Shown: positions 9,147 to 62,560 of the stretch, one piece after another
Layout of the letters: the number at the start of each line of letters is the position of its first letter
Numbering within the stretch: the stretch's first letter is position 1
Made by a program: the position numbers and the translations under genes
Notes under the pieces: generated by a model
What the model saw: only the letters and a program-made list of their open reading frames with translations
Databases searched by the model: none
Told to the model about the DNA's origin: nothing
Assembly: GCA_000002435.2 (NCBI GenBank)
Contig: CM018793.1
DNA from: Giardia intestinalis
Taxonomy: Eukaryota
Reading direction: 5' to 3' (one strand)
Length of the DNA stretch: 64,000 bases

Positions 9147-9159
9147 GGTCTCTGTAAAA

Positions 9160-9166
9160 AGTAAAT
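9160..9166 (+). promoter_or_regulatory. AGTAAAT, a Giardia-type poly(A) signal (AGTRAAY) for the upstream Prp39-like gene
   Basis: AGTAAAT sits 14 nt after the TGA stop (9144-9146) and 14 nt before the next ATG (9180). Confidence 0.5.
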
Positions 9167-9179
9167 TCTAAAAGCCAAC

Positions 9180-13526: not shown

Positions 13527-13586
13527 GGCTAGTGAGATTGCACCAAGACACACAGCAAGAGTAAGATGTAAAATAAATGACTAAAA

Positions 13587-46100: not shown

Positions 46101-46357
46101 ACTGTAGCATTAGTGGCTGTTCTGTCTGCACACTAGGCGTTGAATCCAGTTGCTTGACGTGCGATACTGGTTACGTTCTAACCGATAACACCTGCCAGCA
46201 GCTGGTAAATAACCATCTAAGACAGGTCACAGTCGCACGAATGACAGCAGCAATCTTGGCGATGATAGCTATTACCATCAACATCGCTTATCCTTTGATA
46301 CGCTATCGCAAGTACTTGAGGGACGAGACTGCTCCTTTGCAACCAGAACCTTCTTAA
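43142..46357 (+). CDS. Chimeric surface protein: signal peptide, about 700 aa GG-motif beta-solenoid-like repeat domain, HCMP-type CXXC-rich region, then TM anchor
   Basis: Signal peptide MRLLLLLGLIIQG. About 12 repeats spaced roughly 35 aa apart, each centred on hydrophobic-GG-x-hydrophobic-G (SVGGIVV, VIGGLLS, VVGGAIG, TVGGYIG, VIGGVVG, VIGGIGP, CIGGCFG, RFGGIAS, LIGGFGA, YFGGFVA, NIGGFAG). From about aa 700 the region is dense in CXXC (CILCSPSSSYVCMKCASGY, CLECHSSCMKC...). TM segment AAILAMIAITINIAYPLI followed by RYRKY. Confidence 0.7.
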   Translation: MRLLLLLGLIIQGTTGVICTDEILIYDHEDFALIQSCPNSKFLLMNDIAVVGPMPIIPIFKGTFDGQGFSVGGIVVSELYDKAALFDTFSGSMRNVTLSTMVSVVNSEAKFISGFAIELADAYFYDVNITTTITVKDCIAGTVIGGLLSSTSETAPGLVVASSITVMNCECVVGGAIGQLDSNYTTLLPSYWSSPITVYSTIQLYNSSSTVGGYIGISEKNIHSLVLRASIEVLGNSSHNCVIGGVVGDIRGAVIHSNITLLKMYVSGCANNEKSVIGGIGPSLVCSFPNCTIVEDIKLYINLFYTDGLSNACIGGCFGLVDQVSLSYLHLRFSHVEVESRFGGIASTINCTNIDQAAISIDYITWVDSTTDPFLIGGFGALVDNYTTIENSLVTVGEVNLNYTSINPSYFGGFVANASKLLISNSYAMIFLAVLNTSQVVGANSSFGIMLGRITCNTDEQIRIISSFVAADTILANGHGSELFNIGGFAGHLLNPTTNGQCFVLANSWSSIKFRINEIRRGSGSPFAVGALIGNPGDSSFLITDVYVKAYFDVVNIQQYKYNNNNNDGKYNAIGILTGFYSESAATPTKKQMQIYRVICQVDVLFEENFARNIYYVPSEPVCLLCSDIFITNTSSHFYGYGSKGTYLADPLEMQQRDFYTNFLFGEDQIWQYNLDLYPYHTSLPFLFHHLSDFSSDSTSIRFITPICNHHLCWNYTHVWNGQRSMTVLNLQYLSNQCYIENCILCSPSSSYVCMKCASGYISNASGDTCLECHSSCMKCSIPDLSNQCISCAVYGEVFFNERCIPNPYTCNLPYCLLCSFTSARSCAVCVPGKGVQEENGYCTICKSDCYTCSLSQKCSSCSNYTREALQGFCEYSDTGCYNTCKFCKSDNLEMCLKCSNNSYTLDEYGNCQKQPIPFCMVYNCAICSSADNFICNVCKNGYYLTKNRLCKACEEHCAVCSSYSVCLECMNPKTRPIAGICNYSTNCSISGCSVCTLGVESSCLTCDTGYVLTDNTCQQLVNNHLRQVTVARMTAAILAMIAITINIAYPLIRYRKYLRDETAPLQPEPS

Positions 46358-47984
46358 AGCAGGTAGATAGGAAAGCCAGAAGCATCAATCCAGAGAAGAG
46401 GACAAACATCATCCACATGTAGAGCCAGAGTTCTGTTTTCTCCTGTGCTACGAGTACACACGAAGAGTTTCCATGACTATCTATGTTTAGCTGATAACCG
46501 TCTAGACATGTCTGGCACTGCACGCTACTCTCCTCTTTAAAGAAGTAGACACAGTTTGGGATCGTCAGCTCACAAGTATTGTGGGTATTATTCAGGTAGT
46601 AGGTGATTGCGCAGCTTGTGCAAACTATTTCCTGTGTGCTAAGAGCTCCGCTTGCCGGGACACACGTTCGACAATTTGGTACAACCCTCGAGCAGGCAAC
46701 GCACTCTCCATTCTTCAGGTAATATCCAACTATGCACTCTGTGCACTCTATGTCACTATCCCTTGAGATAGTGCACTTTGTGCAGCCAAGGAGATATGCT
46801 CTGCAAAAGACACATGTGCGATTGACCAGGACATACCCATCCATGCAAGCACTACAAGAGTCGATGTGATACTGTTTGCATCTCTTGGGATTACTTTGCA
46901 GCTTTTCACATTTATTGTTCTTCGCGAGATAGTATCCATTTTTACAGGCAAAGCACGTAATGGTCCCGTCATTTAAAGAGCACTCTGCACACTTTTCTAC
47001 CACTGTCGCACATAGCACGCATGTTGCACCAGTACCAGGGTTAATTAAATAGAAGCCGGAAATGCACTCTGTGCAATATGGTTTAAGGCCATATACACAG
47101 CTCTTGCAGCCTCCACTTATCGCCAAACAGCTCCTGCACTTGCCATCGACAAACGTCATCCCCGACTTGCAGACTGTGCAGGTGGGATTCGGGCTTGACA
47201 CACACATTGTACAATAAGGATCTATCTCTGTGCAATTGCTGCAGCTATTCTTGGCAATCATTTGCAGTCCTTCGTTGCATGCAAGGCAAGTTACTTTATC
47301 CTTTGTCTCGAAGGCGCATACCGTACAATTTGGTATGACGTTATGACAAAATTCACATACGTCTGTTGTGGATACTGCAGCCGTTTTCTCAATAAGCCCA
47401 TACCCAAACCTACATTTGATGCAGCGCGGTTCGGAGCCTTCCATTTTACACTCTTCGCAATCAGGAAATATGTCCTCACAGAATACACAGCTGCCATCGT
47501 GGATCACTACATAATTGTCAATACACTTGTTGCAGTTGTAGACCAGCTGCGCTTTTGAGAAGGAGCATTCCAGGCAATTTGGGATCTGAATACGACAGTT
47601 GATGCACTTTGATCCATCGAGCCTGCCTACTGCATAACTATACTCGCAGGTATTACACACTATAGTCTGGTCTTTCAGCTGTATGCAAGAGTCGCAATTA
47701 TTGATATATTCTTCGCACAGGGAACATCCACCCGCAAAGTCAAGAAACGACCTATATGCGCATTCGGTGCATTCTACTGTAAACGAGTCTCTGTAGTAAA
47801 AGCAAGGCAAGAGCCCCGGGCCAGGGGTCTTTGAGCAAACGTCTGGGTCTGTTGGGAAGCTTAAACACGTACACTTAGTACAGTTCACAACAAAGTCCTC
47901 GCACTTAGCAGGAAGGCAGTCGTAGACATCCCTTGTGTCCCCGCCGGTTGCCAGGAGGAGTTCTCGCTGTGGAGGCAGGCCCAT
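46278..47984 (-). CDS. High-cysteine membrane protein (HCMP / VSP-like, CXXC-rich) lacking an N-terminal signal peptide
   Basis: More than 25 CXXC motifs. C-terminal TM MWMMFVLFSGLMLLAFLSTCF plus a short tail with no CRGKA. The track start is GTG at 47987, and the ATG at 47982-47984 gives MGLPPQRELLLATGGD... with no hydrophobic leader. Its 3' end overlaps the convergent gene 43142..46357 by 80 bp. Confidence 0.6.
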   Translation of the reverse strand: MGLPPQRELLLATGGDTRDVYDCLPAKCEDFVVNCTKCTCLSFPTDPDVCSKTPGPGLLPCFYYRDSFTVECTECAYRSFLDFAGGCSLCEEYINNCDSCIQLKDQTIVCNTCEYSYAVGRLDGSKCINCRIQIPNCLECSFSKAQLVYNCNKCIDNYVVIHDGSCVFCEDIFPDCEECKMEGSEPRCIKCRFGYGLIEKTAAVSTTDVCEFCHNVIPNCTVCAFETKDKVTCLACNEGLQMIAKNSCSNCTEIDPYCTMCVSSPNPTCTVCKSGMTFVDGKCRSCLAISGGCKSCVYGLKPYCTECISGFYLINPGTGATCVLCATVVEKCAECSLNDGTITCFACKNGYYLAKNNKCEKLQSNPKRCKQYHIDSCSACMDGYVLVNRTCVFCRAYLLGCTKCTISRDSDIECTECIVGYYLKNGECVACSRVVPNCRTCVPASGALSTQEIVCTSCAITYYLNNTHNTCELTIPNCVYFFKEESSVQCQTCLDGYQLNIDSHGNSSCVLVAQEKTELWLYMWMMFVLFSGLMLLAFLSTCFKKVLVAKEQSRPSSTCDSVSKDKRC

Positions 47985-48145
47985 CACAGAAAATGAAAAG
48001 GACTTCCATGAGGCACTGTCCTCTATTTACTCGCCAGAGTAGAAAATCCTGAATAAGTATTGATACAGTTCTACGTCTTTTGAACACTGAGTTGTGTTTC
48101 ATCTTAACTAAAGTACTGGCCGTCTGTGGAGCAAGTTGGTGGAGA

Positions 48146-51100
48146 TCAAGGTAGGAACTTTGGGAGTGATGTGGTGCTAATGGCTGTCAATGCAGATCCT
48201 AGATGCATTCGAAGAGGAGCAGATTCCGACGAGTACTGCTCCCGGTAGGGTATACCTGCGTGGGGGGCGGGCTGCTTCACTGTTGTGATAATGTATTCAA
48301 GGAGATCTGCAAAATCAAAGTCCTTGAACCGAATGTAGTATTCGATAACATCAAATCCTCCAGCGTCCTTACAAAGTCCTTCTACCTGGGCTAGTAGCGC
48401 AGATGCTTCTCGTTGACGATATTCAGCCGCATAGTGGATTGCACACTTCCCCCTATTATCGCAAATGCCTGCTTCTAGGGGGGACAACAGCCGAATAATG
48501 CTTAGATGGCCGAACCGAGCGGCAGCCATGAGCGCTGTTCTGCCATTTCTATCTTGGAGTCTTGCCTCTGTGTTCATCAACATCTTTACCAAGGCAAGGT
48601 TGTTATTTGCAACAGAGAACATGAGTGCGCTGGCTCCGTTGAATTCAAAGCCTGAGAACCAGACCGTTGCGCTGCAGCGCGCCCCAGCTTCCTTTTGCAT
48701 AAGCATAAGGGCTCCTTCAACGTTTTCTCTGTCGCATGCAAACATCAGCGCAGTCATTTTAAGGACATCTGTACTTCCTGCCTGTGAGAAGAACTTCCTC
48801 ATACGTGGAATGTCATAAGTGGATGCAGCACTCATCAGCGTCGTGACCTCTTTTTCTTTATCGGCGTAAAATTCAGGGGCTGTGCATGGCATCTGCTCTG
48901 GAAGGGAGTCCTTAAGAGTTTCTAAGTACTGCACAACATCCCAATGCTCGTTCTGCAAGGCACGCAGGTATGCCGAGTCATTTGCCTTTGTCACGACACC
49001 AGCTTCGTGGACACACGCTTTGCAGAGCTCCAGGTTCCCTGCGGCGGCGGCAAAGATAAACCTTGTATAACCGTCTGCAGTTGTCTCTATTTTTGAAGAT
49101 GCTGAATGCGTTCTATTGAGGATAGCCTCGTGGTCGAAGAGTACTTCCCTGATGATGTCTGTTGCGTTATCTTTCTTGATAGCGTCACTCTCTTGGGAAA
49201 ATATGGTTGCTGCAAGCTGCTTAGAGCCAAGAAGCATACAAACCTTGGTGAAGTAGAGAGCTCCTTTGCCAGGGTAAAAAGGAACAAGCGCTGTGATGAT
49301 CTCAGACGCCTTTGTTAGACAGGCCTGGACCACAATGGTGTCCCAGTACTTCTCTATTATCGGACGACTGTGCCTAGCAATATACGATATTGTGTCCCCA
49401 GAGACATAATTCTGAATAGCCATTGACAACGCATTAACCTTGGAAGGATCCTTGTTAATTATTAGGAGATTAGATTGGTAGGGCACAAGAGCCTTAATTA
49501 TGCTATCATTCCTTAGCAGGGTTGCAGCCATTATCTCTGTTGTGCAGTACGAGTTCGTACAGTATGATATCTCCGTTGGAGTAGACTTCTCATCCAGTGG
49601 TAGCTTTCGTACCAGCCGTTTTACCAAGTGAAAATTGTCTGTTATAATCGCATACCGAAGTGAAGCCTGCCTCACCTTGTCGCTGTCAGAATAAAGAAGC
49701 TCCAGCTGGTCAACCACTTTGGCCAGCGGTACAACTCTGTACATCTCTCTGATGGAGCTGACATGTCTCAGCATGCTGATTGCGTTGTGAAGCTCTTGGC
49801 TATACCTATCTGTATGAGGTTCACGCGAGACTTGGGATTGAGTTCGCTGCATACCAAAGTTGTATTCCGTGTCCACCATGCTGAGATCACCCACCCCAAT
49901 CATAGACTCCATCTGAATCGAAAGCGACGGGGTCTCGTTGGCTGTTCCGTTCGAACCGGTCACCGAGGTATTTGGATTTTCTTGTTGCTCCTGGTCTACC
50001 AAAATATGTCTGGGCAGGGATGGATGCACAGGGTTGCTATTCTTAGTAAAGTTAGCAATGCTCACAGTAGCCCTTGGGCCATCTTTTGAGGTCACCAACT
50101 CAGGAAACGATTCGTCGTTGGGGATGGTAAAGGATGGACATGTCATGGACAGAAAACTATGTTCTACCTTGTCGCTCTTCTCGTAGTCTTCTTCTCTACC
50201 TTTATGGATAGGCCTGGTATCGCAAGAGTTTTTCTTCGACTCAGTAGCTTCGCTGGGCTGGCACTTGTGCTTGGTGCGTGCATAATTGCTTACCTGACTT
50301 AGGCTGATACTAGACAAGAAGTCACTAGTATTGATGGACAACATGCTGCCCATGTCTGTGTTGCTGCGCTGATGTCGTTTGTTGAATACGGTACTCAGCA
50401 CACGGTTCATTTGGACCGGAGTCATGAGGCTTGGGGGTAGACCCATTGGCGTGTGTGCCGTGCTCTGTAGCTCCGTGAGAGTCGTCATGATGGTGTGCAC
50501 TTTCTCCAGCAACCGCCTCATGATGTCATCTCTCATGAAAGCACTGGAGTCCTCCTCTGTGTCATCGTGAAGAAGAGAGTCCAAAGAAATAGACTCTCGT
50601 AGAAGCATGCTCATGATGTCTATCTTTATACAACCACGGGTATCCTCCATGTGCGGTAAAGAAGACACATAGTAGATGTTGTTCATGGAGAGATGAGTAC
50701 AGACTACCTCGGCAATCTGGAGACTTATGGAAAGAAGGTAGGTACAGAAAAGCAGGAGCTGCCCAAATATGGCCCAAAGCTCCTCTTCGTAAAGATAAAG
50801 ATTATTCTGCGCAGCTACGAACACATGTTCGCTAAGATATATGCCTTTGTAGTTCGGAACTATAAATATAATTTCCCGCTTCTTCAAGGAAAGCTTATAG
50901 CGCAAAATGGTCATCAATGTGAAGTGATCCAGCTTTGAAAGGTACTGGGCACATTTTAAAAGGAGATCTTCCTCGTACTTGGAACTGGCGTTATAAATGA
51001 AGACGTGCTGAAGCAGATTGAAGGAGTTGGACGGGGTACACTTAAATGAATACACGTCCTTCGGCCTTCTGACTTGCTTAAGAAAGGGCCTGAGGCCTGT

Positions 51101-51172
51101 TCTCAGCCCAGGCTTCGCCGTGCTAGGGTGAAGCACAACATGCTTAAGCTCAGTCGGCACACACGTGGCCAT
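48146..51172 (-). CDS. Ankyrin-repeat protein with an N-terminal degenerate kinase-like region (NEK / Protein 21.1 family)
   Basis: The track start is TTG and the first ATG is at 51170-51172 (MATCVPTELKH...). C-terminal ankyrin repeats include TALMFACD, TALMAAARFGHLSIIRLL and GASALMFSVANNNLALVKML. The N-terminal roughly 300 aa are weakly kinase-like and lack catalytic motifs. Confidence 0.6.
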   Translation of the reverse strand: MATCVPTELKHVVLHPSTAKPGLRTGLRPFLKQVRRPKDVYSFKCTPSNSFNLLQHVFIYNASSKYEEDLLLKCAQYLSKLDHFTLMTILRYKLSLKKREIIFIVPNYKGIYLSEHVFVAAQNNLYLYEEELWAIFGQLLLFCTYLLSISLQIAEVVCTHLSMNNIYYVSSLPHMEDTRGCIKIDIMSMLLRESISLDSLLHDDTEEDSSAFMRDDIMRRLLEKVHTIMTTLTELQSTAHTPMGLPPSLMTPVQMNRVLSTVFNKRHQRSNTDMGSMLSINTSDFLSSISLSQVSNYARTKHKCQPSEATESKKNSCDTRPIHKGREEDYEKSDKVEHSFLSMTCPSFTIPNDESFPELVTSKDGPRATVSIANFTKNSNPVHPSLPRHILVDQEQQENPNTSVTGSNGTANETPSLSIQMESMIGVGDLSMVDTEYNFGMQRTQSQVSREPHTDRYSQELHNAISMLRHVSSIREMYRVVPLAKVVDQLELLYSDSDKVRQASLRYAIITDNFHLVKRLVRKLPLDEKSTPTEISYCTNSYCTTEIMAATLLRNDSIIKALVPYQSNLLIINKDPSKVNALSMAIQNYVSGDTISYIARHSRPIIEKYWDTIVVQACLTKASEIITALVPFYPGKGALYFTKVCMLLGSKQLAATIFSQESDAIKKDNATDIIREVLFDHEAILNRTHSASSKIETTADGYTRFIFAAAAGNLELCKACVHEAGVVTKANDSAYLRALQNEHWDVVQYLETLKDSLPEQMPCTAPEFYADKEKEVTTLMSAASTYDIPRMRKFFSQAGSTDVLKMTALMFACDRENVEGALMLMQKEAGARCSATVWFSGFEFNGASALMFSVANNNLALVKMLMNTEARLQDRNGRTALMAAARFGHLSIIRLLSPLEAGICDNRGKCAIHYAAEYRQREASALLAQVEGLCKDAGGFDVIEYYIRFKDFDFADLLEYIITTVKQPAPHAGIPYREQYSSESAPLRMHLGSALTAISTTSLPKFLP

Positions 51173-51207
51173 CAACAAACTTTCTTTCTAAAATAAAGGT
51201 GTACGCC

Positions 51208-51993
51208 ATGGCATTCAAGTCATGTGTCAATAGAGGAGGGTTCAAGCAGATTAAAGAAGTATACAGGAGCTTTCCAGAGTTGACTCTCGCTCTCCGTGAA
51301 GCCAGCATGGAAAGCTCGCAGATCATCTTGGCATTCGACTTTTCAAAATCCAATGAATGGTCTGGGGAAAAGACGTATCGGCGTAGTTTGCACGACATTA
51401 CTCAAGAAACCCCTTATGAGAAGGTGTGCAGGCTTCTTATCCCGGTAATAACGTCATTCGACTCGGACAGCATCATCCCTGCTATCCGGTTTGGCTGTAG
51501 CGTATCAAAAGATCAGATAGTTTGCCCTCTGAACCCTTACTCCAAGTCCCCGGAGTGCCAGGGCTTTGCGGAGGTTCTGCACAACTATCGCGAGGCTGTC
51601 AGGATGGTGAAGCTTTCGGGCCCGACGTCTCTCAGCCCCGTGGTTCGGTACGCGATTAACATCGTGAAGAAAACCCGGGAATATCACATTCTGATCATCC
51701 TTACTGACGGCGACCCCGTGTCCAGCGTGGCAGATGCAGATGCAATCGCTGAGGCATCCAACTACCCCCTCTCCATAGTTGCTGTTGGGCTAGGTGACGG
51801 CCCATTCAAGATTCTCCAGTCCTTCGACACACAGTATTACAACAGACGCTTCGATAACTTCCACTTTGTCAATTTCACCGAGTTGGAGACTAAGTTTATA
51901 AACAGCAACAGACCCGACCTGCTTTTGGCAACAGAGCTCTTTGTAGAGATTCCAAAGCAGTACAGAATAATAAGAAAACTTGGCTTGCTCTGA
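51208..51993 (+). CDS. Copine-type von Willebrand A (vWA) domain protein, a stand-alone A domain with no C2 domains
   Basis: The track start at 51199 is GTG and the ATG is at 51208. Motifs LAFDFSKSN, HILIILTDGDP, SIVAVGLGDGPF and the copine-specific FDNFHFVNF are present. Confidence 0.7.
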   Translation: MAFKSCVNRGGFKQIKEVYRSFPELTLALREASMESSQIILAFDFSKSNEWSGEKTYRRSLHDITQETPYEKVCRLLIPVITSFDSDSIIPAIRFGCSVSKDQIVCPLNPYSKSPECQGFAEVLHNYREAVRMVKLSGPTSLSPVVRYAINIVKKTREYHILIILTDGDPVSSVADADAIAEASNYPLSIVAVGLGDGPFKILQSFDTQYYNRRFDNFHFVNFTELETKFINSNRPDLLLATELFVEIPKQYRIIRKLGLL

Positions 51994-52091: not shown

Positions 52092-52604
52092 TTACCAGTT
52101 TCCCTTGGCCTCTTCCTCTGCAATAGCGTCCCTCCAGGCATCCACTGCCCGTTTAAGATCGAAGGCTATGTTGTACAACGTGTTGTCTGTATATTGCTTA
52201 AACGATGGTAGCTTGTATATGTAGTTCTCATCGTTGATATAGTAATACATTTCACATGGATAGCTCAGCAGCCCCCCTTCGGGCTCCACGCAATACCCAG
52301 CTATCAAGGCCCGAGATGGGGTATAATCCTGGATCTTGTACAAAATCACCTTCCCACTGTCCAACTGCTCTCTCGTGAACTCCTCCGAGAGGTGTGACTT
52401 GTCCCTAATCCAGTCCTCGAGTGTTGTCGGTCTCTGATTTTTGGTCTTTATGTTGACGCAGTACTCGTTTTGCTGGCAGAAGGGAGAGTGACGGAAGTAA
52501 GCTAATAGGCGGTCCTGCTCCGTATAGTTCTCACCTGCAAGCTCGTCGTTGTTATTGTAGAGATCGTTGTCGCACCATGAAAGAACCAGCCTCTTGCGGT
52601 CCAT
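52092..52604 (-). CDS. Hypothetical protein, 170 aa
   Basis: ATG confirmed. It starts 58 bp downstream of the giant membrane-protein gene on the same strand. No recognisable domain. Confidence 0.4.
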   Translation of the reverse strand: MDRKRLVLSWCDNDLYNNNDELAGENYTEQDRLLAYFRHSPFCQQNEYCVNIKTKNQRPTTLEDWIRDKSHLSEEFTREQLDSGKVILYKIQDYTPSRALIAGYCVEPEGGLLSYPCEMYYYINDENYIYKLPSFKQYTDNTLYNIAFDLKRAVDAWRDAIAEEEAKGNW

Positions 52605-52662: not shown

Positions 52663-55600
52663 TCACAGTAGCTTGGCAAAGGATAGCATGTCGCCATATG
52701 CATTGAAGATCCCTGAGCTCAACTCCTTAAAGGAGAGGAGGTCAGCCACAGGGATCGTGTTCAGAATGGTCAAAATGGATGATATCTCCTTTCGTACGAC
52801 AATGATGGTGTATGTGGCGCACACTAAAAAGGCTCCTATCATGACCCCGTAGACAGTGCTGACGGCCAACTTGATATTTCTCATCTTGAACACTGGACTA
52901 ACATATCCCTCCATGATCTTGTTTATGTCACCCAGGGTGAGGTTTGTTATGCCTAGATAGTCGTCCTTATCATACACATCCGATAGTCGGATCCTTTGGT
53001 TGACTTTGTCGGCTGCATCCCAGATTCTCTTCCGCACCTCTTCCGTTGCGACTAGGATGCTCGTGGTATAATTGATGAGGAGCTCCTTTATGTCATACAT
53101 CCCAGTGCTGTTTGTATAGCTAAATCCTGGCAGTAGCATGGTGGCTGCTGACTGGGCCACCTTTGCATATTCATTGAGGTTCTGTATGCGAGTATACAAC
53201 TCGCTGATATGCATTTCTTCATACGACAAGTCTGTGTTCTGCAGAGTTGCCAGTGTTAAGTTTATGAGACGCGAGTTAATGAAGACGTTTCCCAAGGAGT
53301 TGTAGAGCCTGGTCTCCGTCCACCGTTTGGTTTCGTCCGTTGTCACAACCTCAACCCTGAACATGGCCATCAATAGACTGATCAGCAAAACGAATATTAG
53401 TACGATGAAGGCACCGACTGTCAGTCCAAAACTGAGTGCAAGGCTGTGCCTGTGGGTAGTCATTATCTTGAAGACGACAAGGCCAGTCCTTGTAGGCGCA
53501 AACTGCAAGTAGACGTAGAGCAGAACCAACAAGATCACATGTATCACAAGAAACCATGAGATGATACGCTGCATAAGAACCAAGAAGTTATCTATTTGAG
53601 TCTCGACAGCAAGAATCTGTCGCGTCAGAGAGTTAGTTGTCAGCTCGACTTTATGTGAAAACAAGAGTAAGTTCTTGAATAGGATGTTGCTCCCTTTTGA
53701 GATGGATTTTATGTATAGATGGAGCTCCTTGTCAGTTAGACTCTTTAGTCTAGCGTATGAATATATCTCAACGCAGTTTGTCGGACCCGCACATAGAAGG
53801 TAGTCTTCATAGTACGATGAGTACTTCTTGTCTGGTACCGGCTTACTAAAGTTGAAGACTTCGTCTAGATAGACATCGGCTGTGTACTGCTGGATTTTCT
53901 CTGGAAACATTTCCCTCGGTAGTATACACATGCGTGCCAGCGCCACGTTAACCGAAAATACCGCGTGGCGGATATTATAGTAGAGGTCTAACATCTGGTC
54001 TGTGTCGATAAAGGGCTTGATACTCTCGACTGCGTCTACCAGATGGAACTTGGTATTGAGCATTACTGGTCGCTGCAGGGCCACATAGATATCTTCGCAG
54101 GCATACCTGTAGGCTTGATTGGCGTCGTCCCACTCCAAGCTGGCGAGTTGCATGTTATAATCACCAAGAGATTCCAGGAGTTGCAGTCCTAAGCTGTTCA
54201 ACCGAGAGCTAGATACGTATATGCGCGTCATGTGTGAGACTGCCACCTTATTGTTAAAGAACTGCGTGAAGCTGGCCACTATTATTGTGATAATTACAGC
54301 GGCAATAAGTGATGCTAATACAGCAAAGAATCGGGGTAAGCTCCTATAAGAATAAAGGTCAACCCAGACAGGGCTTCTTGGGCGAGTGGTCTTAGGTATT
54401 TTGACTCTGGGTGCTGAGAAGTGGTGTAGCACTAATAAAGTAACAGGAACACAGCTCAGAAGGAGAAGAAGCGAGAACAAGTGCTCAGTCGTTATGTTCT
54501 TCTCATCCAGCTGCTTATTGATCGATGTTGATTCCCGCTGTTTGGCTATGCTGTTCATGAGAAGCATGCTGTGAAACGCTGTGAGCTCCGCACACGGGTC
54601 CTTCCCCCTCAGCTCTGCATAGGATGGTTGGAGGATGGAGAAGCTGTTATTATAAACGCTCCTCTGCATCTCTATGAATGCCTTTATTCCGACTGTTTCC
54701 TTTTGGAGGTTCTGCCGGTTGAGCATCGGCTTGTATACCTCAAATGGCGGCAGAAGGAGGGCAGCCTTGTACTCATTCTCTTTGAAGGTGGGTGGCGGAG
54801 ATGATGAGGCCCCGTAGTCTAGTACAAACATTACATACTTACTGGCAAGGTTGCTGTACTGATTGATGATCATAGAATAGTAATCGTAAGATGGGCTGCG
54901 GACAGACATTGTATAGAGATAGATGAGCTTTTTTGTGACGTCAGCAAATCGAATGTCCCTGTCAAGGACAAATGGAGCCAAATGCGGATTCTTGATGGCA
55001 CGGGAGCATGTATAGTATAGTCTATACGGCTCTGTCTCTGGCTCTGTAGGGGTTATGCTTGTGTGCTGGGAAATAGACAGGTCTACCAGCAGTGTATCGA
55101 GAATGAGGTCCTGAAGGAGAGCGTAGTTTTGTCGAAGCCATGTGAGCCTCCACTGTGGACTGGCATATATAATATGTTCTGAATTATCAATGTAGTCATG
55201 AGTGGATCGACATTCCTGGCTTTCTGCAGGGCTTGTGGCCTTCTGCAAACAGCTTTCAAATCTAACCACGTCTCCTATTGTTTGGTACGCTGGAGTAACG
55301 TGTATTGGCTCGATATCGTTGCTCCAAGGTTTATTGTAAAACGTGGGATCCAAGTCCTCATCGGGATATCGCATGGACTCAATAACGGATGCATAATATG
55401 GGCCAATTCCTGTCTCCGTGTAGGAAATAATTGGAATGGAGTGGAATATGTACAGTAGTACCATGCTTAACCCTATACATAGTAGAACAAATACCTTGGA
55501 AATGGCCCAGACGACAGATGGCCTGTCATATTGCGCAGAAAACGTCTTGTATAGTTCTACTAGTCTGCTATAGTCGTATCGGTAAGTGAGCTTGCCCTGC

Positions 55601-58600
55601 ATATCACCAAGAGAAGAGCTGGTGTAACACGCACTGCTAGATCCTGATAGCAGGTTGGAGCTGCCGTCACTGGAGGAGCTGCTAGCTTCTGTCTTGGGTT
55701 GCTGCTCAACACACAACTGTGGGGGACACCTTCTCAGCAGCATATCTTTCTCTGCAGTTACCTCAGAGTGCATGGACACAAGATGCTCAAATGTCGGAGT
55801 GTACTTCACGTTCTGGTACGCAAAGTTGATCCGTTCTTTAGAATAGAACTGTGCAAATAATAGCCTATAATCAAATCGTGCTCCTGTTCGTGACAGAAGA
55901 TTGAGCAGAAGGTCAGAAAGGTTTTGAAGACGAACCAGAAAGATATTATAGCTTGAGAAGGTGAAAATAAGACAAAAACCTACTGTTCCCGTTAGCGCCA
56001 TCAAGAGTACCTTGAGGTGCGTAGAGAAGTTCTGTATCAGCAGAGAAGATGTTGCCACGGTGAACATGCTGTTCCAAACGAACGGCACGATATTGATGTA
56101 GATATTGGATCGCACACCTTCTATCTTACTTTGGATGCACTCGGTAATCAGTTGATGGTTGTTTATATTCCAGAGGCTCAGCTTGTCTAGTGCCTGCGGA
56201 GGTGGAAAGCAAACGAGCATATCCTTATACGGGTTCTGAAATACAATTGTGCCGTAGATACGTGTGGGAATCGGGGTTGGTATGAATGAAACCATCTTAT
56301 TAGAGACCTTTAGAATGTGGAAAAAGGGATGAATTGAAGAAAAAGCATACTGCTCTAGATCCAGGCCTAGGTTATAGATTTTTTGAGACATATCTTCATA
56401 TATGTCGGATATGCTTAGGTAGTACAGCTCCTCTAAGTCCTTTGGGGTGAAAAATGTGTCTATCGGCTCCTTATTGACCACTCTCTGGGAATAGCTATCG
56501 TATATTTTCATAAAGGCGATCTCGTCCGCTTGAACAACAGCGGCAAAAATACTGGCGGCCTCTATGACGGAGTCGTTATACATAAAGACTCTGCTTGCCT
56601 TGTTGATAATGAAGAGAGAGACCACAAAGGCAAGTAACGAAGCAACAGTGTATGCGAGGTTTTCAGGGTTGAACACCGTTATTGATCTAATTATGTCTTG
56701 ATGTTTGTTTAATAAAGTTTTAACAAACCTCTTTGCAGAACTCTTTGTGGACCCCAATGAGTCATGGAATCCAGTGGTGAAGAACCGGCGCCAGAGGCGA
56801 CGGCTTTTCTTAGATCTGCTTCTGGTTTTGCCATCTTTTTCCATGGAGGTATCGAGTGCTGTGGACAAAATGGCCATGTGGTTAACTATATTTATGGAAA
56901 CCGGCGATACCATTAGTGATGCCTCTGCACCCTTTATATCGGCATATGTTCTGTACTCACAACGCTGAAGAGACAGGGGGTTGTCAACGACTGCATAGTG
57001 GCAGTAACTCAGGCATGGGGGCAAAATCACTATGGACCCCTCGGGAGTATACGATATGTAGAAGGATTGTATGGACCGGTCCTGTGTGAGGATAAAATTC
57101 TGGATGTAGTTTCGGACGGTTCTGACCGATTCACAACAACTATCCTGTTGTATCAGGGGCGCTCCTGGAGATATGTGATCTACTAGCACTGACTTTGTAC
57201 GCGTTTGACCGAAACTAGAAAGAGAAAGGGTGGAGAACGTGCCAGTGGCAGGGTCATCCGAGTGCGCAGTGGACTCTTGCTGGCTAGACACGGGCGAGTC
57301 CGGTAATTGCTTGATATCAGATCCATCAGTGACATCAGAATCGTCGCTATCCTGTTCTTCTAGTGCATCCTCGGGTGAAATAGCAGAATCGTGACTGCTG
57401 GTGGAGGAGTCAACGTCAGAGCTATCGGATATCATTGACGATGTACGCCTCCTCATATAATCAGAGTGGAAAAGGGAATTGTTTAGGTTGCTGAGCTCCT
57501 TGTTATTTAAGGATGGCTGAATATGGCTAATGAGGGGGAAGATGCTGAGCTGGTTAAGCGGCCAGATGGTGTTATAGAGCTCGTGATAAACCCATGCAAG
57601 TGTGTGCGTGGCAGTGACACAGTAAGGGTACGCTATGTACAATCGTTTCGCCTGCTCAACGATGTCCTGATACATCACATTCTGTTTGTTGCATAGCACC
57701 ATAAGCTCTTCAAGTCTGACGGTGGAGAAGTGGCAGTCCTGCTTTAGGTTATTGCTGAGCTTCGTGATACGATCAATATTTGTCAGACACGTATCCGCAT
57801 TCTCAAGGATCCTGCCCAAGATAGAGTTTATGATCATACAGGAGCAGATGTTCATGGGCCTCGTATTCGCTAATTTCGGGTTCGCAAAGTATTTGTACTT
57901 GGTAGGTGGAGCAAAATCCAAGGCATTCGCGTAGTCGCGTTCGACCTCGACAAGATCCTCCTTATTACTAATACACTGAGAGATAGAGTCGTATATATTG
58001 TCTAGGCCCAAGTACTTGATAATCTTGAATCTACTCAGCTTTCTAAGAGTGCCATGGAACTGTTTCATGGTTGACATTGGGGTAACATCGGGATTGATCT
58101 GCTCATTAAATATTGCACTGACATCTTTCGGTGTAGAGAGGTAAGGGGAGGCGATGGAAAGGGGCGTTGCTATGCTCGTTATTTTCTTGGTACCTTCACA
58201 GATTGGTGACTGATTATCAGATATACCTTGTTGCTTGTACATTTCTTGAGGAGGAGTATCATCCAGATAGAAGAGCCTGCTGGGATCGAATAGTCGTCTG
58301 AACTGGGGGTGTAGATCCTTGGTGCTCATCTTAACAAGAACAAACCCGCAGCACGAATAGAGAAGTGTTTCAAGCAAAGCGTTTAGGGACCAAGCGGATC
58401 TGGTGCTAAGGTCTAGCTCCGGAGAATCAAACACTAGGTCTCGGAGGAATTGTGGGGAGAGCTGCTGGATAATCCACTGAAGCTTTGACCGACAATCCTT
58501 GAGATTTGCAGCAGAACTGGCAAGAGTATCCTTAGAGCCTCGTGAGAGGTGATGAATAGAGAACGTCGGCCTGTGAAACAGCCACCTCTTCCTGTTGTTA

Positions 58601-60516
58601 AGTGTAAGATGCATGGTATCATTATCACGCCTATAGACACGCAAAGGTATATGTGATTGCTCAGAAACTTCAGTACTTGTGTAGCATGCTATATTGTCGC
58701 TCAAGCGGTTCAAAGAACGCTCCTTTCTTTCTGTGACTGTGATGGATGCGAGCTTCGGCTGGACTCCAGACTCACTAGCGTTAGGCGACGGGGCATTCAA
58801 GTCTGAGTAGCCCACGTCCGAAACGTCTATCGTGGCAAGATCTTCCTTCTCTGTGGGGGTAACCGGAGAACTTCTTCGGTACTGCTGAACATTGATGAGC
58901 ACGGATGACTTGGCAACTTCGTCACCCTGCCCATCTGGATAGATACAGGCCTCAGAAGGTGATCTATCCTGCTTCTGTGGCTCTTTTGCTTCAGCATTCG
59001 TCTTGCCTTGCTTAAGATGACTTTGTGATTCAGGACTGGACTCAGACCTCTGCTCCGAATTCAACAGCATTGGCTGATTGATCAAAGAGTGCTCTGTGCT
59101 CTTGAGGATCATTAGCAGAGAAAAAATCTCCAGTAGGTACATGTTGATTTCGTACACGATATGTTTGTCTTTATTGATAGATGCAGTGACTCCGCGCAGG
59201 TCTTCCTGTGATTGCGAATCCTCCTCTTTGGGGGCATCTAGAAATGCACGGAGCACCTCGCAATCAAGCATGTCCAGAATAAGGCATATGTATGCCAGTT
59301 TTTTCTGTTTAGAACATCTAGCAATGCACCCATGGGCTTGCTTTGTGCCGCGCCTATAGTCACGGAAGCCTATCTTATTAGTCGCTGAATCTAGCCTCAA
59401 TGAATTGTACAGAGCGATGATGTAGCAGAGACAGATGTTTTCTAGCGCTACATAAAATCTTCCGTCTGTAATTGCGACACGCTTTATATGGGATGTGAAA
59501 AGTAAGAGGCTATTGTAGAGCATCTCCGGGGTCAGGGATACTCCGGTGTAGGTATAGTCTCCGTTGTGAAGCCTGACTATTGCCGCCTGCTCCCTTCTGT
59601 ACTTGCGGATGACAAAAGTATAAGATAACAAAAATGTGAAGCATGCCCAACAAAGCACTGTCACGGTGTAAATCATGAAATGGTTGGTCGGCACAGGTAT
59701 GATAGTCATTACAATCCCCACCAAGTTGAGTCCAGAAAGCAAGCATAGAATTGCGATAATGACCGGAGTCAAAAAGCTGCAGAAGGGCACGATACAGTTA
59801 ATGATAATGCTATATGTTACAAACACAAGAACAAAGCCGTGTAGGCACCTGGATGCAATCATCCAGTTGGAAAGGCCGCGCATAAAGCCAATAAACACAA
59901 TGTACAGGGGGCCCATCACGAAGGAGATGATATAGGGCACTGCAGCAGTTAGCAGATACTGGATTGGGGTGAGGACAAACGTTGTAGACGCATAAAACAA
60001 AGACATGTAATTGAAAATTGTAAAATAGAAAATACTAAGGATTGCTACGATGAGATGGCAAAAGAACAAAGTAAATCTCTTTTGGATTGCATTGTAGAAT
60101 AATAAAAACGACGACCCAAAGGCGTATATCAATCTAATGCTTGTTAGAAAGTAGAAGACTAGACGCTTAGCTCGGGCTGCTTGATAGTTTGTGTTCCCCT
60201 TTGTCAGAGAGATGTGTAGAGCAAGAGAAAGGACAAACCCCATAACTAGAAAAGATGCCTGGAGTGAAACGACGATGGTAAAGAAGATATAAAGGCCCCA
60301 CGGGAAGGTGACCTTAAGAAAAATGTCATTAGGCCGTATGTAGCTAGTGATACAAAAAGCCAGAAGGAGGTAGAAGAAGATCTGATTCAAAAGCACGCTA
60401 ACAAAGAAGGGCCGACAGATGCTGTATTGACGCTTGCCAATGAGAAATGTAACAAGGCGCCTTCGCGAAAGACGCATTATGTTCTGCCAGCTTTGGCTGG
60501 TGCGCGGGGTCTTCAT
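52663..60516 (-). CDS. Giant multi-pass membrane protein, about 2600 aa, orphan
   Basis: Continuous 7.9-kb ORF. The track start at 60582 is GTG; in-frame ATGs lie at 60516 (MKTPRTS...) and 60477. N-terminal block of about 10 hydrophobic helices (for example FFVSVLLNQIFFYLLLAFCITSYI, VILCLLSGLNLVGIVMTIIPV). Further TM clusters occur mid-protein and at the C-terminus (VIHVILLVLLYVYLQF, TVGAFIVLIFVLLISLLMAMF, VYGVMIGAFLVCATYTIIVV). Large hydrophilic loops carry Ser/Asp-rich acidic stretches. No nucleotide-binding or cyclase motifs seen. Confidence 0.65.
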   Translation of the reverse strand: MKTPRTSQSWQNIMRLSRRRLVTFLIGKRQYSICRPFFVSVLLNQIFFYLLLAFCITSYIRPNDIFLKVTFPWGLYIFFTIVVSLQASFLVMGFVLSLALHISLTKGNTNYQAARAKRLVFYFLTSIRLIYAFGSSFLLFYNAIQKRFTLFFCHLIVAILSIFYFTIFNYMSLFYASTTFVLTPIQYLLTAAVPYIISFVMGPLYIVFIGFMRGLSNWMIASRCLHGFVLVFVTYSIIINCIVPFCSFLTPVIIAILCLLSGLNLVGIVMTIIPVPTNHFMIYTVTVLCWACFTFLLSYTFVIRKYRREQAAIVRLHNGDYTYTGVSLTPEMLYNSLLLFTSHIKRVAITDGRFYVALENICLCYIIALYNSLRLDSATNKIGFRDYRRGTKQAHGCIARCSKQKKLAYICLILDMLDCEVLRAFLDAPKEEDSQSQEDLRGVTASINKDKHIVYEINMYLLEIFSLLMILKSTEHSLINQPMLLNSEQRSESSPESQSHLKQGKTNAEAKEPQKQDRSPSEACIYPDGQGDEVAKSSVLINVQQYRRSSPVTPTEKEDLATIDVSDVGYSDLNAPSPNASESGVQPKLASITVTERKERSLNRLSDNIACYTSTEVSEQSHIPLRVYRRDNDTMHLTLNNRKRWLFHRPTFSIHHLSRGSKDTLASSAANLKDCRSKLQWIIQQLSPQFLRDLVFDSPELDLSTRSAWSLNALLETLLYSCCGFVLVKMSTKDLHPQFRRLFDPSRLFYLDDTPPQEMYKQQGISDNQSPICEGTKKITSIATPLSIASPYLSTPKDVSAIFNEQINPDVTPMSTMKQFHGTLRKLSRFKIIKYLGLDNIYDSISQCISNKEDLVEVERDYANALDFAPPTKYKYFANPKLANTRPMNICSCMIINSILGRILENADTCLTNIDRITKLSNNLKQDCHFSTVRLEELMVLCNKQNVMYQDIVEQAKRLYIAYPYCVTATHTLAWVYHELYNTIWPLNQLSIFPLISHIQPSLNNKELSNLNNSLFHSDYMRRRTSSMISDSSDVDSSTSSHDSAISPEDALEEQDSDDSDVTDGSDIKQLPDSPVSSQQESTAHSDDPATGTFSTLSLSSFGQTRTKSVLVDHISPGAPLIQQDSCCESVRTVRNYIQNFILTQDRSIQSFYISYTPEGSIVILPPCLSYCHYAVVDNPLSLQRCEYRTYADIKGAEASLMVSPVSINIVNHMAILSTALDTSMEKDGKTRSRSKKSRRLWRRFFTTGFHDSLGSTKSSAKRFVKTLLNKHQDIIRSITVFNPENLAYTVASLLAFVVSLFIINKASRVFMYNDSVIEAASIFAAVVQADEIAFMKIYDSYSQRVVNKEPIDTFFTPKDLEELYYLSISDIYEDMSQKIYNLGLDLEQYAFSSIHPFFHILKVSNKMVSFIPTPIPTRIYGTIVFQNPYKDMLVCFPPPQALDKLSLWNINNHQLITECIQSKIEGVRSNIYINIVPFVWNSMFTVATSSLLIQNFSTHLKVLLMALTGTVGFCLIFTFSSYNIFLVRLQNLSDLLLNLLSRTGARFDYRLLFAQFYSKERINFAYQNVKYTPTFEHLVSMHSEVTAEKDMLLRRCPPQLCVEQQPKTEASSSSSDGSSNLLSGSSSACYTSSSLGDMQGKLTYRYDYSRLVELYKTFSAQYDRPSVVWAISKVFVLLCIGLSMVLLYIFHSIPIISYTETGIGPYYASVIESMRYPDEDLDPTFYNKPWSNDIEPIHVTPAYQTIGDVVRFESCLQKATSPAESQECRSTHDYIDNSEHIIYASPQWRLTWLRQNYALLQDLILDTLLVDLSISQHTSITPTEPETEPYRLYYTCSRAIKNPHLAPFVLDRDIRFADVTKKLIYLYTMSVRSPSYDYYSMIINQYSNLASKYVMFVLDYGASSSPPPTFKENEYKAALLLPPFEVYKPMLNRQNLQKETVGIKAFIEMQRSVYNNSFSILQPSYAELRGKDPCAELTAFHSMLLMNSIAKQRESTSINKQLDEKNITTEHLFSLLLLLSCVPVTLLVLHHFSAPRVKIPKTTRPRSPVWVDLYSYRSLPRFFAVLASLIAAVIITIIVASFTQFFNNKVAVSHMTRIYVSSSRLNSLGLQLLESLGDYNMQLASLEWDDANQAYRYACEDIYVALQRPVMLNTKFHLVDAVESIKPFIDTDQMLDLYYNIRHAVFSVNVALARMCILPREMFPEKIQQYTADVYLDEVFNFSKPVPDKKYSSYYEDYLLCAGPTNCVEIYSYARLKSLTDKELHLYIKSISKGSNILFKNLLLFSHKVELTTNSLTRQILAVETQIDNFLVLMQRIISWFLVIHVILLVLLYVYLQFAPTRTGLVVFKIMTTHRHSLALSFGLTVGAFIVLIFVLLISLLMAMFRVEVVTTDETKRWTETRLYNSLGNVFINSRLINLTLATLQNTDLSYEEMHISELYTRIQNLNEYAKVAQSAATMLLPGFSYTNSTGMYDIKELLINYTTSILVATEEVRKRIWDAADKVNQRIRLSDVYDKDDYLGITNLTLGDINKIMEGYVSPVFKMRNIKLAVSTVYGVMIGAFLVCATYTIIVVRKEISSILTILNTIPVADLLSFKELSSGIFNAYGDMLSFAKLL

Positions 60517-60856
60517 CGACAATACCACACTTGGCAATTTGAAACCTTTTTTGCCTGATGTCGAGGGCCAATCGATCCTCACTTGTACCTCTGCTTGTAG
60601 ATATGCTCTTAGGCGTTATGGATGCAGAGCCCTTTGAACCCCAAAGCTCGCAGGTAGTGGTGGGGTACATAGCCGAGCGAAATATGACCACAGCTGCCTC
60701 CCAAGACCCTTGTCCTAGTACCTATGGACATTAACTAATGAGCTAGTTTGGTTATCGTCCGAACCAGGTAGAAAACAGGCAGTGGTCGAGTGGGTGACGT
60801 TTGTTAGACTTAATGCTGAATGATAGAAAGCTTGCTAATATTTACTGGGGCATCAG

Positions 60857-62560
60857 TCACTCGTTATTGATGGCGGCAAATACGGCATCCAATGTCCGCA
60901 TCTGCTGCTGGATTGTTTCTGACTTCTTGCTAAGCTTAATTACATCCCGGAAGCACATAATGAAGCTGGTGACGTTTGTAGTTATCTTCGTAAGGTCCTT
61001 CATGATGGCCCCTGTCACCTCATCGTCTGTCAAGGACCCATTGGCCACAGCACCAGTCTCCGAGTCTGGGTTCGTTGCAATGCGAACTGAAGTCTGACAG
61101 ATAACCACTACGACGAGTGTTACTGTTAACAGGATGAACGCTTGATCTAGCTCTTCTGTATATGAGAGGACGTCCATGACGAAAAGTGAAAGCTCAAAGG
61201 AAACCTTGCTAAACACCGTTAAAACGCAGCTAGATGTAACAGCGGGTATAATCTCAAAGATTGTATCGAAATTGGACTTGAAAAGGTTGTGCGCACGCTG
61301 GCGAAGCTGTCTGTGCAGTGCTGTCACTTGGGGGGTCTCTGGGGCAGAGTCGCAGGCAGTAAGCGTGGCTTCGTCGATGCTCACAGTAGTGGCCTCTTCA
61401 ACAGCATCAGAGGTATTGCAATCGTTTGCGCTGGATGATCCTTGGGTTACTGCCCTAGCACTGCCATTGAAGCTATGAGCAGACGAAGCCATTGGAGCCA
61501 AGACCTGCTTATCGGTACAGAAGTTAAAATATGCCTCATATCCCTCGAAACCATAGTACGCTAGCCCCAGAGGCTCCCTCGTCTTGACCTTCTTCCTATT
61601 AAATAGGCTGGTGACTCGTTGAGTTTGGGTGCAATCGATAGAGTCTAAGCATTCACCCGAGAGAATAAGCGAAACAATCTTTATGACTGCACAGCTAACG
61701 GTATCAATGCGCTCCTTTTCCATCAGGATGAATGAGCGATACACATTGCTCATCTTAGTGACCCTTAGAGCTATCCCTACGGCTTCATAGAGGGTTCTTG
61801 AATACAGAAGCGTGACGCCACACAGGTATGTTAATCCTTGAACATATGGCGTCTTGCTGCTGCTTATGACAGCAACCAGGACGTCACAGAAGGAAGGGAA
61901 AAGGGGAGAGTTCGTCTCAAATAGCTTTAACTCTCTAAAGGTGCGGTGGGCATCAGCCATAAGGAGTCTATTGCCCCGGACATAAAAGACACTCCACACG
62001 TGACCCTCTGCCTCGTATATCTTATCGATAGGTATAAGTGCATCGCTGGAAAGGACTGACCCGTCCTCCTGAGTTCGATAGCTGTTGTAGTATCCTGCTT
62101 CCATGGCTGCAGTATCGACATTTAAAGGCATTGTGTGCGTAAGAGGACTCGCCAGTATCTTCTTACATATGACTTCTGCCTCCTGGGTGTACTTGAGTGT
62201 CAAATACGTCCACGAGGCACGTCTGAAATATGCTGGGATCTCCCCATGCTGCATCAGCAGGGCAGTTAGTCCTTCAAGGGTCTCGGCTGAGGGAGATTGA
62301 TTGAGCAGGCGCGACCAGGTGAGATCAGCGAGAGCTCGGAGATCTGGAGTGTTGAAGCAAGAAGGTTTAGTAGTAGTTGGTACAGGGATATTTAAAACCT
62401 GAAGGGTCCCGTTACGCTTTGCAGCAAAAGCAACCTCCGATTGGACGGTAGTCTCTTCAAACTTTGCGACGTAAGCATCGATGACCCACAGAGGGATGTC
62501 CTTGTTCCTTAGCAGTACTCCAAGGATCCCGATTTGCTGTTGTTTGCCGATGACGTTCAT
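60857..62560 (-). CDS. Hypothetical protein, 567 aa
   Basis: ATG confirmed at 62558-62560, 53 bp from the divergent gene at 62614. No confidently recognisable domain. Confidence 0.5.
   Translation of the reverse strand: MNVIGKQQQIGILGVLLRNKDIPLWVIDAYVAKFEETTVQSEVAFAAKRNGTLQVLNIPVPTTTKPSCFNTPDLRALADLTWSRLLNQSPSAETLEGLTALLMQHGEIPAYFRRASWTYLTLKYTQEAEVICKKILASPLTHTMPLNVDTAAMEAGYYNSYRTQEDGSVLSSDALIPIDKIYEAEGHVWSVFYVRGNRLLMADAHRTFRELKLFETNSPLFPSFCDVLVAVISSSKTPYVQGLTYLCGVTLLYSRTLYEAVGIALRVTKMSNVYRSFILMEKERIDTVSCAVIKIVSLILSGECLDSIDCTQTQRVTSLFNRKKVKTREPLGLAYYGFEGYEAYFNFCTDKQVLAPMASSAHSFNGSARAVTQGSSSANDCNTSDAVEEATTVSIDEATLTACDSAPETPQVTALHRQLRQRAHNLFKSNFDTIFEIIPAVTSSCVLTVFSKVSFELSLFVMDVLSYTEELDQAFILLTVTLVVVVICQTSVRIATNPDSETGAVANGSLTDDEVTGAIMKDLTKITTNVTSFIMCFRDVIKLSKKSETIQQQMRTLDAVFAAINNE

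Follow-up and report, generated by a model that had tools for sequence, protein, structure and literature searches.

In a 64,000-nucleotide window of the Giardia intestinalis genome (GenBank assembly GCA_000002435.2, contig CM018793.1; positions are counted from the first letter of the window), the minus strand carries a single uninterrupted open reading frame (ORF) for a protein of 2617 amino acids (aa). It is well supported as a real, constitutively transcribed, single-copy gene, and comparison of the sequences likewise gives good support for a polytopic membrane protein family restricted to the genus Giardia. The predicted protein has about 16 transmembrane (TM) crossings, a cytosolic N-terminus and four large, mostly helical loops on the extracytosolic side. 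Rather than a channel, we tentatively see in it a receptor- or scaffold-like transmembrane linker, a reading to which we give a probability of about 0.35.

The six-frame ORF list places the frame at 52663..60582 on the minus strand, which corresponds to 2639 aa from an upstream GTG. Counted from the first ATG, at 60516, the protein has 2617 aa, and the stop codon occupies 52663-52665. The one uninterrupted 7.9-kb ORF of about 2600 aa that the initial annotation had described from the letters of the DNA is thereby confirmed to the nucleotide. The product is identical to GL50803_0015478 (XP_001708818.1, UniProt A8B7J1) of G. intestinalis WB, a chromosome 5 gene labelled 'hypothetical protein' and, in other isolates, 'putative membrane spanning protein'. 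By our own estimate, 2617 stop-free codons would arise by chance with a probability of ~(61/64)^2617, or ~e^-125. Immediately 5' of the ATG lies an A-rich tract, and such a tract just before the ATG is a typical feature of Giardia promoters. The start codons chosen in databases differ: 2639 aa for a GTG-extended 'partial' entry (ESU37970.1), 2617 aa from the ATG at 60516, and 2526 aa from an internal Met in read-archive assemblies. The orthologue P0004 begins at the equivalent of Met14, and conservation sets in at about residue 16 (5' end of the coding sequence, window 60475-60582, minus strand). Judged from these alignments, the true start could be either Met1 or Met14.

Orthologues are present in all lineages that enter our alignment, which comprises five G. 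duodenalis lineages and G. muris and underlies every statement on conservation below. The assemblage E/P15 protein (2624 aa, 83-84% identity) and the assemblage B protein (2601 aa, 68-70%) are full-length and intact, and two more lineages, known from read-archive assemblies only, encode intact proteins of 2628 and 2637 aa with 61-67% identity. In an HMMER search of every sequence we recovered the G. muris orthologue, TNJ29306.1 (2094 aa, E = 1e-41), encoded at 8001-14285 of CM016925.1 (our L002). It is collinear with the G. intestinalis protein over its whole length at 24% identity, and BLASTP aligns the two in three ordered segments (E = 7e-42, 6e-24 and 2e-15). The G. muris protein is 523 residues shorter because it is without the low-complexity linkers at aa 481-680 and 1001-1090 and parts of those at 1581-1664 and 1720-1780. 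Interruption of the ORF in other assemblages had been named beforehand as a finding that would refute the initial reading; neither the four other G. duodenalis lineages nor G. muris shows such an interruption. The lineage with 61% identity (L001) has the same neighbouring genes as the WB window, while around the G. muris orthologue synteny is not kept and the adjacent small ORFs are unrelated. A read-archive protein of 137 aa (P0037) matches aa 1433-1514 exactly (window ~55960-56220, minus strand) and then diverges; its sequence suggests a frameshifted fragment of an assembly and not a paralogue.

RNA-seq through encystation gives the gene a value of about 7-8 (units unchecked) at every time point (PMC8700996 Tables S1, S3), and it is listed among 149 'unchanged' control genes in the same study (PMC8700996). 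The gene is steadily transcribed, and its level is flat through encystation. Regulation by Myb2, which its presence in a 'Myb2 regulon' table could be taken to mean, was rejected, as the gene sits in that table's list of unchanged controls. We regard GL50803_0015478 as a real gene because of the length of the ORF, the intact orthologues and the steady transcription.

The protein does not belong to any family that we could recognise. Pfam and NCBIfam searches with all six orthologues, taken up to E = 10, returned no family common to two members; the single-member matches (U5_2-snRNA_bdg at 0.016, TMEM132_C, C8, DNER_C) are noise. Searches of PDB sequences, with the protein sequence alone as well as with two profiles, gave no match below E = 0.6. 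Word-index searches of 5.8 billion proteins, run with a single sequence and with 5-sequence and 6-sequence profiles, recovered G. duodenalis orthologues only. An exhaustive HMMER search of 1.84 billion representatives with a profile of the C-terminal 1178 aa (aa 1440-2617) recovered Giardia proteins only; the N-terminal 1439 residues lie outside this exhaustive search and outside the structure models described below. A scan of JGI metagenomes with two motifs from the N-terminal half produced 50 pattern matches and 0 confirmed relatives. Nor did the protein resemble itself: when nine modules were compared with each other by hhalign, no internal repeats were detected, and the sole matches were the overlaps built into the modules. 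A motif scan found no Walker A, HRD/DFG, HExxH, GxGxxG or QxxRW.

The motif scan and the profile searches thus bear out the description of the protein in the initial annotation as an orphan without P-loop, kinase, cyclase or transporter signature, and strong homology in profile searches, which would have spoken against that description, did not appear: no known family was found. By sequence and, within the searches run, by fold, it appears to be a genuine orphan. Its novelty at the family level is novelty by default, as it rests on negative searches with a very shallow alignment of six sequences. A large share of Giardia genes encode lineage-specific 'hypothetical proteins'. No searchable paper names the gene. 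Supplements to two proteomes, to the G. muris genome paper and to the interactome papers on the UPS and the mitosome, five sets in all, do not list it either; several of the files are incomplete, so that absence from them is not evidence of non-expression. Apparent matches in supplements turned out to be GL50803_115478, a different locus tag.

We assigned TM helices from hydropathy, on the sequence and on the alignment average, and their orientation from the positive-inside rule. The N-terminal block (aa 36-303) is a compact bundle of about 8 helices by hydropathy, fewer than the 'about 10' proposed at first. The N-terminal tail is basic (9 K/R in 35 aa) and so is the exit from the bundle (RKYRRE), which would place both ends of the bundle in the cytosol; the even count of eight fits this. 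In G. muris six helices pass the same hydropathy threshold, and the two middle ones are less hydrophobic. Between the bundle and the next TM helix lie ~980 hydrophilic residues, predicted to be cytosolic, with three conserved blocks: a juxtamembrane segment, C2 and C3 (Table 1). Block C2 is the best-conserved part of the protein, with ~91% identity within G. duodenalis and 37-39% to G. muris. The acidic Ser/Asp-rich stretches reported earlier for the long hydrophilic region are real in composition: the 75 residues of aa 1016-1090 contain 24 S+T, 19 D+E and 4 K+R. The acidic Ser-rich linkers that separate the three conserved blocks are probably disordered and dispensable.

The further TM clusters that had been noticed in the middle and at the C-terminus of the protein are present, and their count resolves into eight helices, which we call a to h, between aa 1285 and 2576 (1285-1308, 1499-1525, 1665-1699, 2010-2036, 2058-2089, 2310-2342, 2356-2394 and 2547-2576). 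All eight recur at corresponding places in G. muris. Basic residues are concentrated in the short d-e and f-g turns and in the segment that precedes helix a; by the positive-inside rule, the four long loops a-b, c-d, e-f and g-h would face the outside or a lumen. Overall, the K+R content per residue is 0.15-0.26 in the short loops and termini assigned to the cytosol and 0.07-0.11 in the large loops; the C-terminal tail, at 0.05, is an exception. Loop b-c, on the predicted cytosolic side, begins with a helix that hardly varies (aa 1526-1580, 97% identity within G. duodenalis); the Ser-rich stretch after it is variable. Among the ectodomains, loop e-f is the best conserved, with 30% identity to G. 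muris. In each of the loops a-b, c-d and e-f, all six sequences share exactly two invariant cysteines, consistent with one disulfide per loop; the hint is weak in itself.

AlphaFold2 models cover the C-terminal part of the protein. A model of aa 1418-2617 built from five close sequences was unusable, with a mean predicted local distance difference test score (pLDDT) of 33.5. With G. muris added, a model of aa 2000-2617 (618 aa) reached a mean pLDDT of 59.2 and a predicted template modelling score of 0.46, with 70-88 pLDDT in loop e-f. In it, TM helix e runs on as a 71-residue helix into loop e-f, a 63-residue helix returns into TM f, and a head of short helices and beta-hairpins lies between these two long helices. 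With moderate confidence, the model thus points to a helical ectodomain in loop e-f. The Foldseek comparison of the C-terminal part that had been proposed as a check (aa 2000-2617; model pLDDT 59) identified no known fold: nothing in the PDB was matched at E <= 1e-3, and the best matches, G-protein-coupled receptor-BRIL fusions and axonemal coiled coils (E = 0.024, template modelling score 0.1-0.2), are generic helical bundles.

Conservation differs between the membrane and the domains on either side of it. Within G. duodenalis, the fraction of invariant positions is 0.46 in TM helices, 0.57 in the ectodomain loops, 0.56 in the conserved cytosolic blocks and 0.18 in the linkers. When G. muris is added, invariant residues make up 10.8% of the TM helices and 17.9% of the aligned positions outside them. 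Towards G. muris, identity is greatest in C2 (37%) and loop e-f (30%); most TM helices reach 16-26%, TM f 31% and the N-terminal bundle 20%. In all six sequences, no TM helix contains an invariant Asp or Glu. Of the basic TM residues just two are invariant, R128 within TM3 and R2317 on the edge of a helix, and invariant polar TM residues are few (T125, R128, Y164, S172, Y187, H226 and T271, with some Ser, Tyr and Trp). Channels and transporters usually conserve their membrane core most strongly. In this protein the TM helices are the least conserved of the structured parts, which suggests, weakly, that the soluble domains on both sides of the membrane are the functional parts.

In the receptor- or scaffold-like linker that we favour, the role of the conserved helical ectodomains, loop e-f in particular, would be to bind a partner or a structure outside the cell or in a lumen, and the conserved cytosolic blocks C2 and C3 would bind a cytosolic partner. 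The TM helices would mainly anchor the protein and couple its two sides, and would line no conduction or transport path. The 'sensor' or 'receptor-like' part of the initial proposal is plausible on the same grounds, as it fits conserved ectodomains combined with a cytosolic block. Several points weigh against this interpretation. Binding of partners by the ectodomains and by C2/C3 is something we infer from the sequence, the topology is itself a prediction, and the quality of the structural models ranges from poor to moderate (pLDDT 33.5 and 59.2). The cytosolic blocks, too, have invariant cysteines (C362, C364, C893, C910, C942 and C1172), and because of this the cysteine pairs of the loops are no proof of an oxidising location. 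Low conservation of the TM helices is a weak argument, as hydrophobic helices tolerate substitutions and the alignment has only six sequences. Finally, two invariant residues, R128 of TM3 and H226, with which TM6 begins, may be part of a polar pathway.

The last point bears directly on a novel ion channel, transporter or lipid scramblase, in which the 8-TM bundle, alone or as an oligomer, would form the path, gated by the ectodomains and the cytosolic region. The compactness of the bundle with its very short loops, the invariant R128 and H226, and the nearly invariant membrane-proximal cytosolic helix after TM b would suit such a protein. However, the six orthologues have no channel or transporter match in Pfam, NCBIfam or PDB sequences at E <= 10, the fold matches are generic helical bundles, and the N-terminal bundle, at 20% identity between G. 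muris and G. intestinalis, falls below the soluble blocks. Contrary to its initial description as a good candidate for a novel channel, we found no positive evidence for one: the TM helices are the least conserved structured parts and are without an invariant acidic residue. We consider a conducting or transporting function unlikely. Piezo channels share the size (>2500 aa) and the many TM helices, but have ~38 of them against ~16 here; repeated 4-TM units are undetectable by hhalign, there is no Piezo match in Pfam, and ~1000 residues of the Giardia protein are predicted to be cytosolic. For the TMEM16/OSCA/TMEM63 superfamily, we found neither a match to the Anoctamin or RSN1_7TM models nor a fold match. 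P-loop ATPase transporters (ABC, P-type) are not indicated either, as the [AG]xxxxGK[ST] motif is absent and no Pfam or NCBIfam model matches. SCAP, NPC1/Patched and the ABCA transporters combine many TM helices with a few very large, disulfide-containing non-cytosolic loops. The Giardia protein shares the many helices and the few very large, predicted non-cytosolic loops, but it has no match to sterol-sensing-domain, Patched or ABC models in Pfam and no Walker A motif, and it differs in the number and order of its loops, four in all, each enclosed by a TM pair.

A bolder proposal, somewhat less probable than a plain channel, is that the protein is the first of a new structural class, in which 16 TM helices include a compact 8-TM bundle coupled, via a conserved cytosolic domain, to four disulfide-braced helical ectodomains. 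It might act as a Giardia-specific sensor-channel of the surface or endomembranes (e.g. mechanical, osmotic or bile/lipid) or as an organiser of a Giardia-specific membrane contact (e.g. between peripheral vacuole and plasma membrane). More doubtful again is a membrane-shaping or lipid-binding module akin to prominins and Tweety homologues (TTYH) in TM d-h, which would organise a curved or specialised membrane or vesicle release. Prominins and Tweety homologues have a pentaspan layout, in the order TM, TM, large helical loop, TM, TM, large helical loop, TM and tail (PMC11405016, PMC8361169, PMC8617170). The d-h module resembles Prominin-1 and TTYH in topology only: it has a short basic turn, ectodomain loops of ~220 and ~150 aa and a 41-aa cytosolic tail, its modelled TM helices continue as long ectodomain helices, and conserved cysteines occur in ectodomain loops. 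Unlike the pentaspan proteins, it is embedded, as only one quarter of the protein, in 2617 aa with 11 more TM helices and a ~980-aa cytosolic region, and its loop g-h is without cysteine. None of the six orthologues matches the Prominin (PF05478) or Tweety (PF04906) profile at E <= 10, comparison of the a-d with the e-h unit reveals no internal repeat, and no TTYH or prominin chain is among the top PDB fold matches of the aa 2000-2617 model, which is of moderate quality (pLDDT 59). We do not assign the protein to the pentaspan family. A membrane-embedded polymerising glycosyltransferase, such as the cyst-wall beta-1,3-GalNAc synthase, arranged like FKS1 or cellulose synthase with the catalytic domain in the large cytosolic part, is very improbable. 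We know of no gene that has been identified for the synthase of the Giardia cyst-wall beta-1,3-GalNAc polymer, and all that would suit it is the confinement of the protein to Giardia and its overall plan, with a large cytosolic region between two TM blocks. There is no match to glycosyltransferase models, GT2 and GT48 included, in Pfam and no QxxRW; the one DxD triplet of eight that falls in a block shared with G. muris, D2171-T-D, is in an ectodomain loop; the four large C-terminal loops are predicted to face away from the cytosol; and the transcript is unchanged through encystation, among the non-regulated controls, where a cyst-wall synthase would be expected to be induced. An annotation artefact (a chance ORF, a pseudogene or two fused genes), to which only the inconsistent database start codons (2639, 2617 and 2526 aa) would lend support, we regard as refuted by the length of the ORF, the intact collinear orthologues at 24-84% identity and the steady transcription.

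If the protein is at the parasite surface, its conserved Giardia-only ectodomains would be a non-variant target for drugs, vaccines or diagnostics, unlike the variable coat of variant-specific surface proteins (VSPs). Being constitutive, very large and confined to the genus, it could also serve as an entry point to membrane structures peculiar to Giardia. The ORF has long stood in databases as a hypothetical protein, and orphans are common in Giardia. It is a sensible candidate for experimental study, and no surprise in itself.

Table 1. Features of GL50803_0015478 in the window, from the N-terminus to the C-terminus; TM helices, sidedness and helical loops are predictions from the basis given.
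Feature	Residues (aa)	Position	Strand	Basis
Complete coding sequence, 2617 codons and stop		52663..60516	-	ORF list, database identity
Compact bundle, ~8 TM helices, short loops	36-303	59608..60411	-	hydropathy, charge
Conserved juxtamembrane segment, cytosolic, R.RRR...H.G....L.PE.L ... LE..C.CY; 26% identity to G. muris	304-372	59401..59607	-	alignment
Poorly conserved hydrophilic linker, mostly missing in G. muris	481-680	58477..59076	-	alignment
Block C2, cytosolic, H[TA]LAWV[YH]HEL...WPLNQL	874-1000	57517..57897	-	alignment
Acidic Ser/Asp-rich low-complexity linker, absent from G. muris	1001-1090	57247..57516	-	alignment, composition
Block C3, cytosolic, FY....G..V.LPP.LS.CH	1091-1215	56872..57246	-	alignment
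TM helix a, preceded by basic stretch	1285-1308	56593..56664	-	hydropathy, charge
Extracytosolic loop a-b, 190 aa, invariant C1436 and C1460	1309-1498	56023..56592	-	charge, alignment
TM helix b	1499-1525	55942..56022	-	hydropathy
Cytosolic loop b-c	1526-1664	55525..55941	-	alignment
TM helix c	1665-1699	55420..55524	-	hydropathy
Extracytosolic loop c-d, 310 aa, helical, invariant C1837 and C1975	1700-2009	54490..55419	-	charge, model, alignment
TM hairpin d-e, short basic cytosolic turn (5 K/R in 21 aa)	2010-2089	54250..54489	-	hydropathy, charge, model
Extracytosolic loop e-f, 220 aa, invariant C2140 and C2197	2090-2309	53590..54249	-	alignment, model
TM hairpin f-g	2310-2394	53335..53589	-	hydropathy, model
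Extracytosolic loop g-h, 152 aa, three ~25-residue helices, four N-x-S/T sites, no Cys	2395-2546	52879..53334	-	charge, model
TM helix h	2547-2576	52789..52878	-	hydropathy, model
Cytosolic C-terminal helix/tail	2577-2617	52666..52788	-	alignment, model

Several neighbouring genes of the window could be characterised as well. Directly downstream of the large gene, a 170-aa ORF (52092-52604, minus strand) has a sub-threshold Pfam match to the Mediator subunit Med6 (E = 5e-5, 23.5 bits against a cut-off of 27) that covers 119 of the 133 profile positions. The Med6-like ORF adjoins the large gene in another G. duodenalis lineage too, and the small ORF beside the G. muris orthologue is unrelated to it. 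Upstream lies a 567-aa ORF (60857-62560, minus strand) with a borderline match to RabGAP-TBC (E = 2e-5, 24.8 bits against a cut-off of 25.2); it may encode a divergent Rab GTPase-activating protein. Farther away, 43142-46357 on the plus strand and 46278-47987 on the minus strand encode two Cys-rich single-pass membrane proteins with CXXC repeats and without a Pfam match, which in sequence resemble the high-cysteine membrane or VSP-like proteins of Giardia. These two ORFs are convergent and overlap by 80 bp as listed; the minus-strand ORF starts at a GTG, and the real overlap may be smaller. Also downstream of the large gene are a 1010-aa ankyrin-repeat protein (48146-51178, minus strand) and a clear copine/vWA-domain protein (51199-51993, plus strand; E = 1e-46), and the order of these two genes is the same in the 61%-identity lineage.

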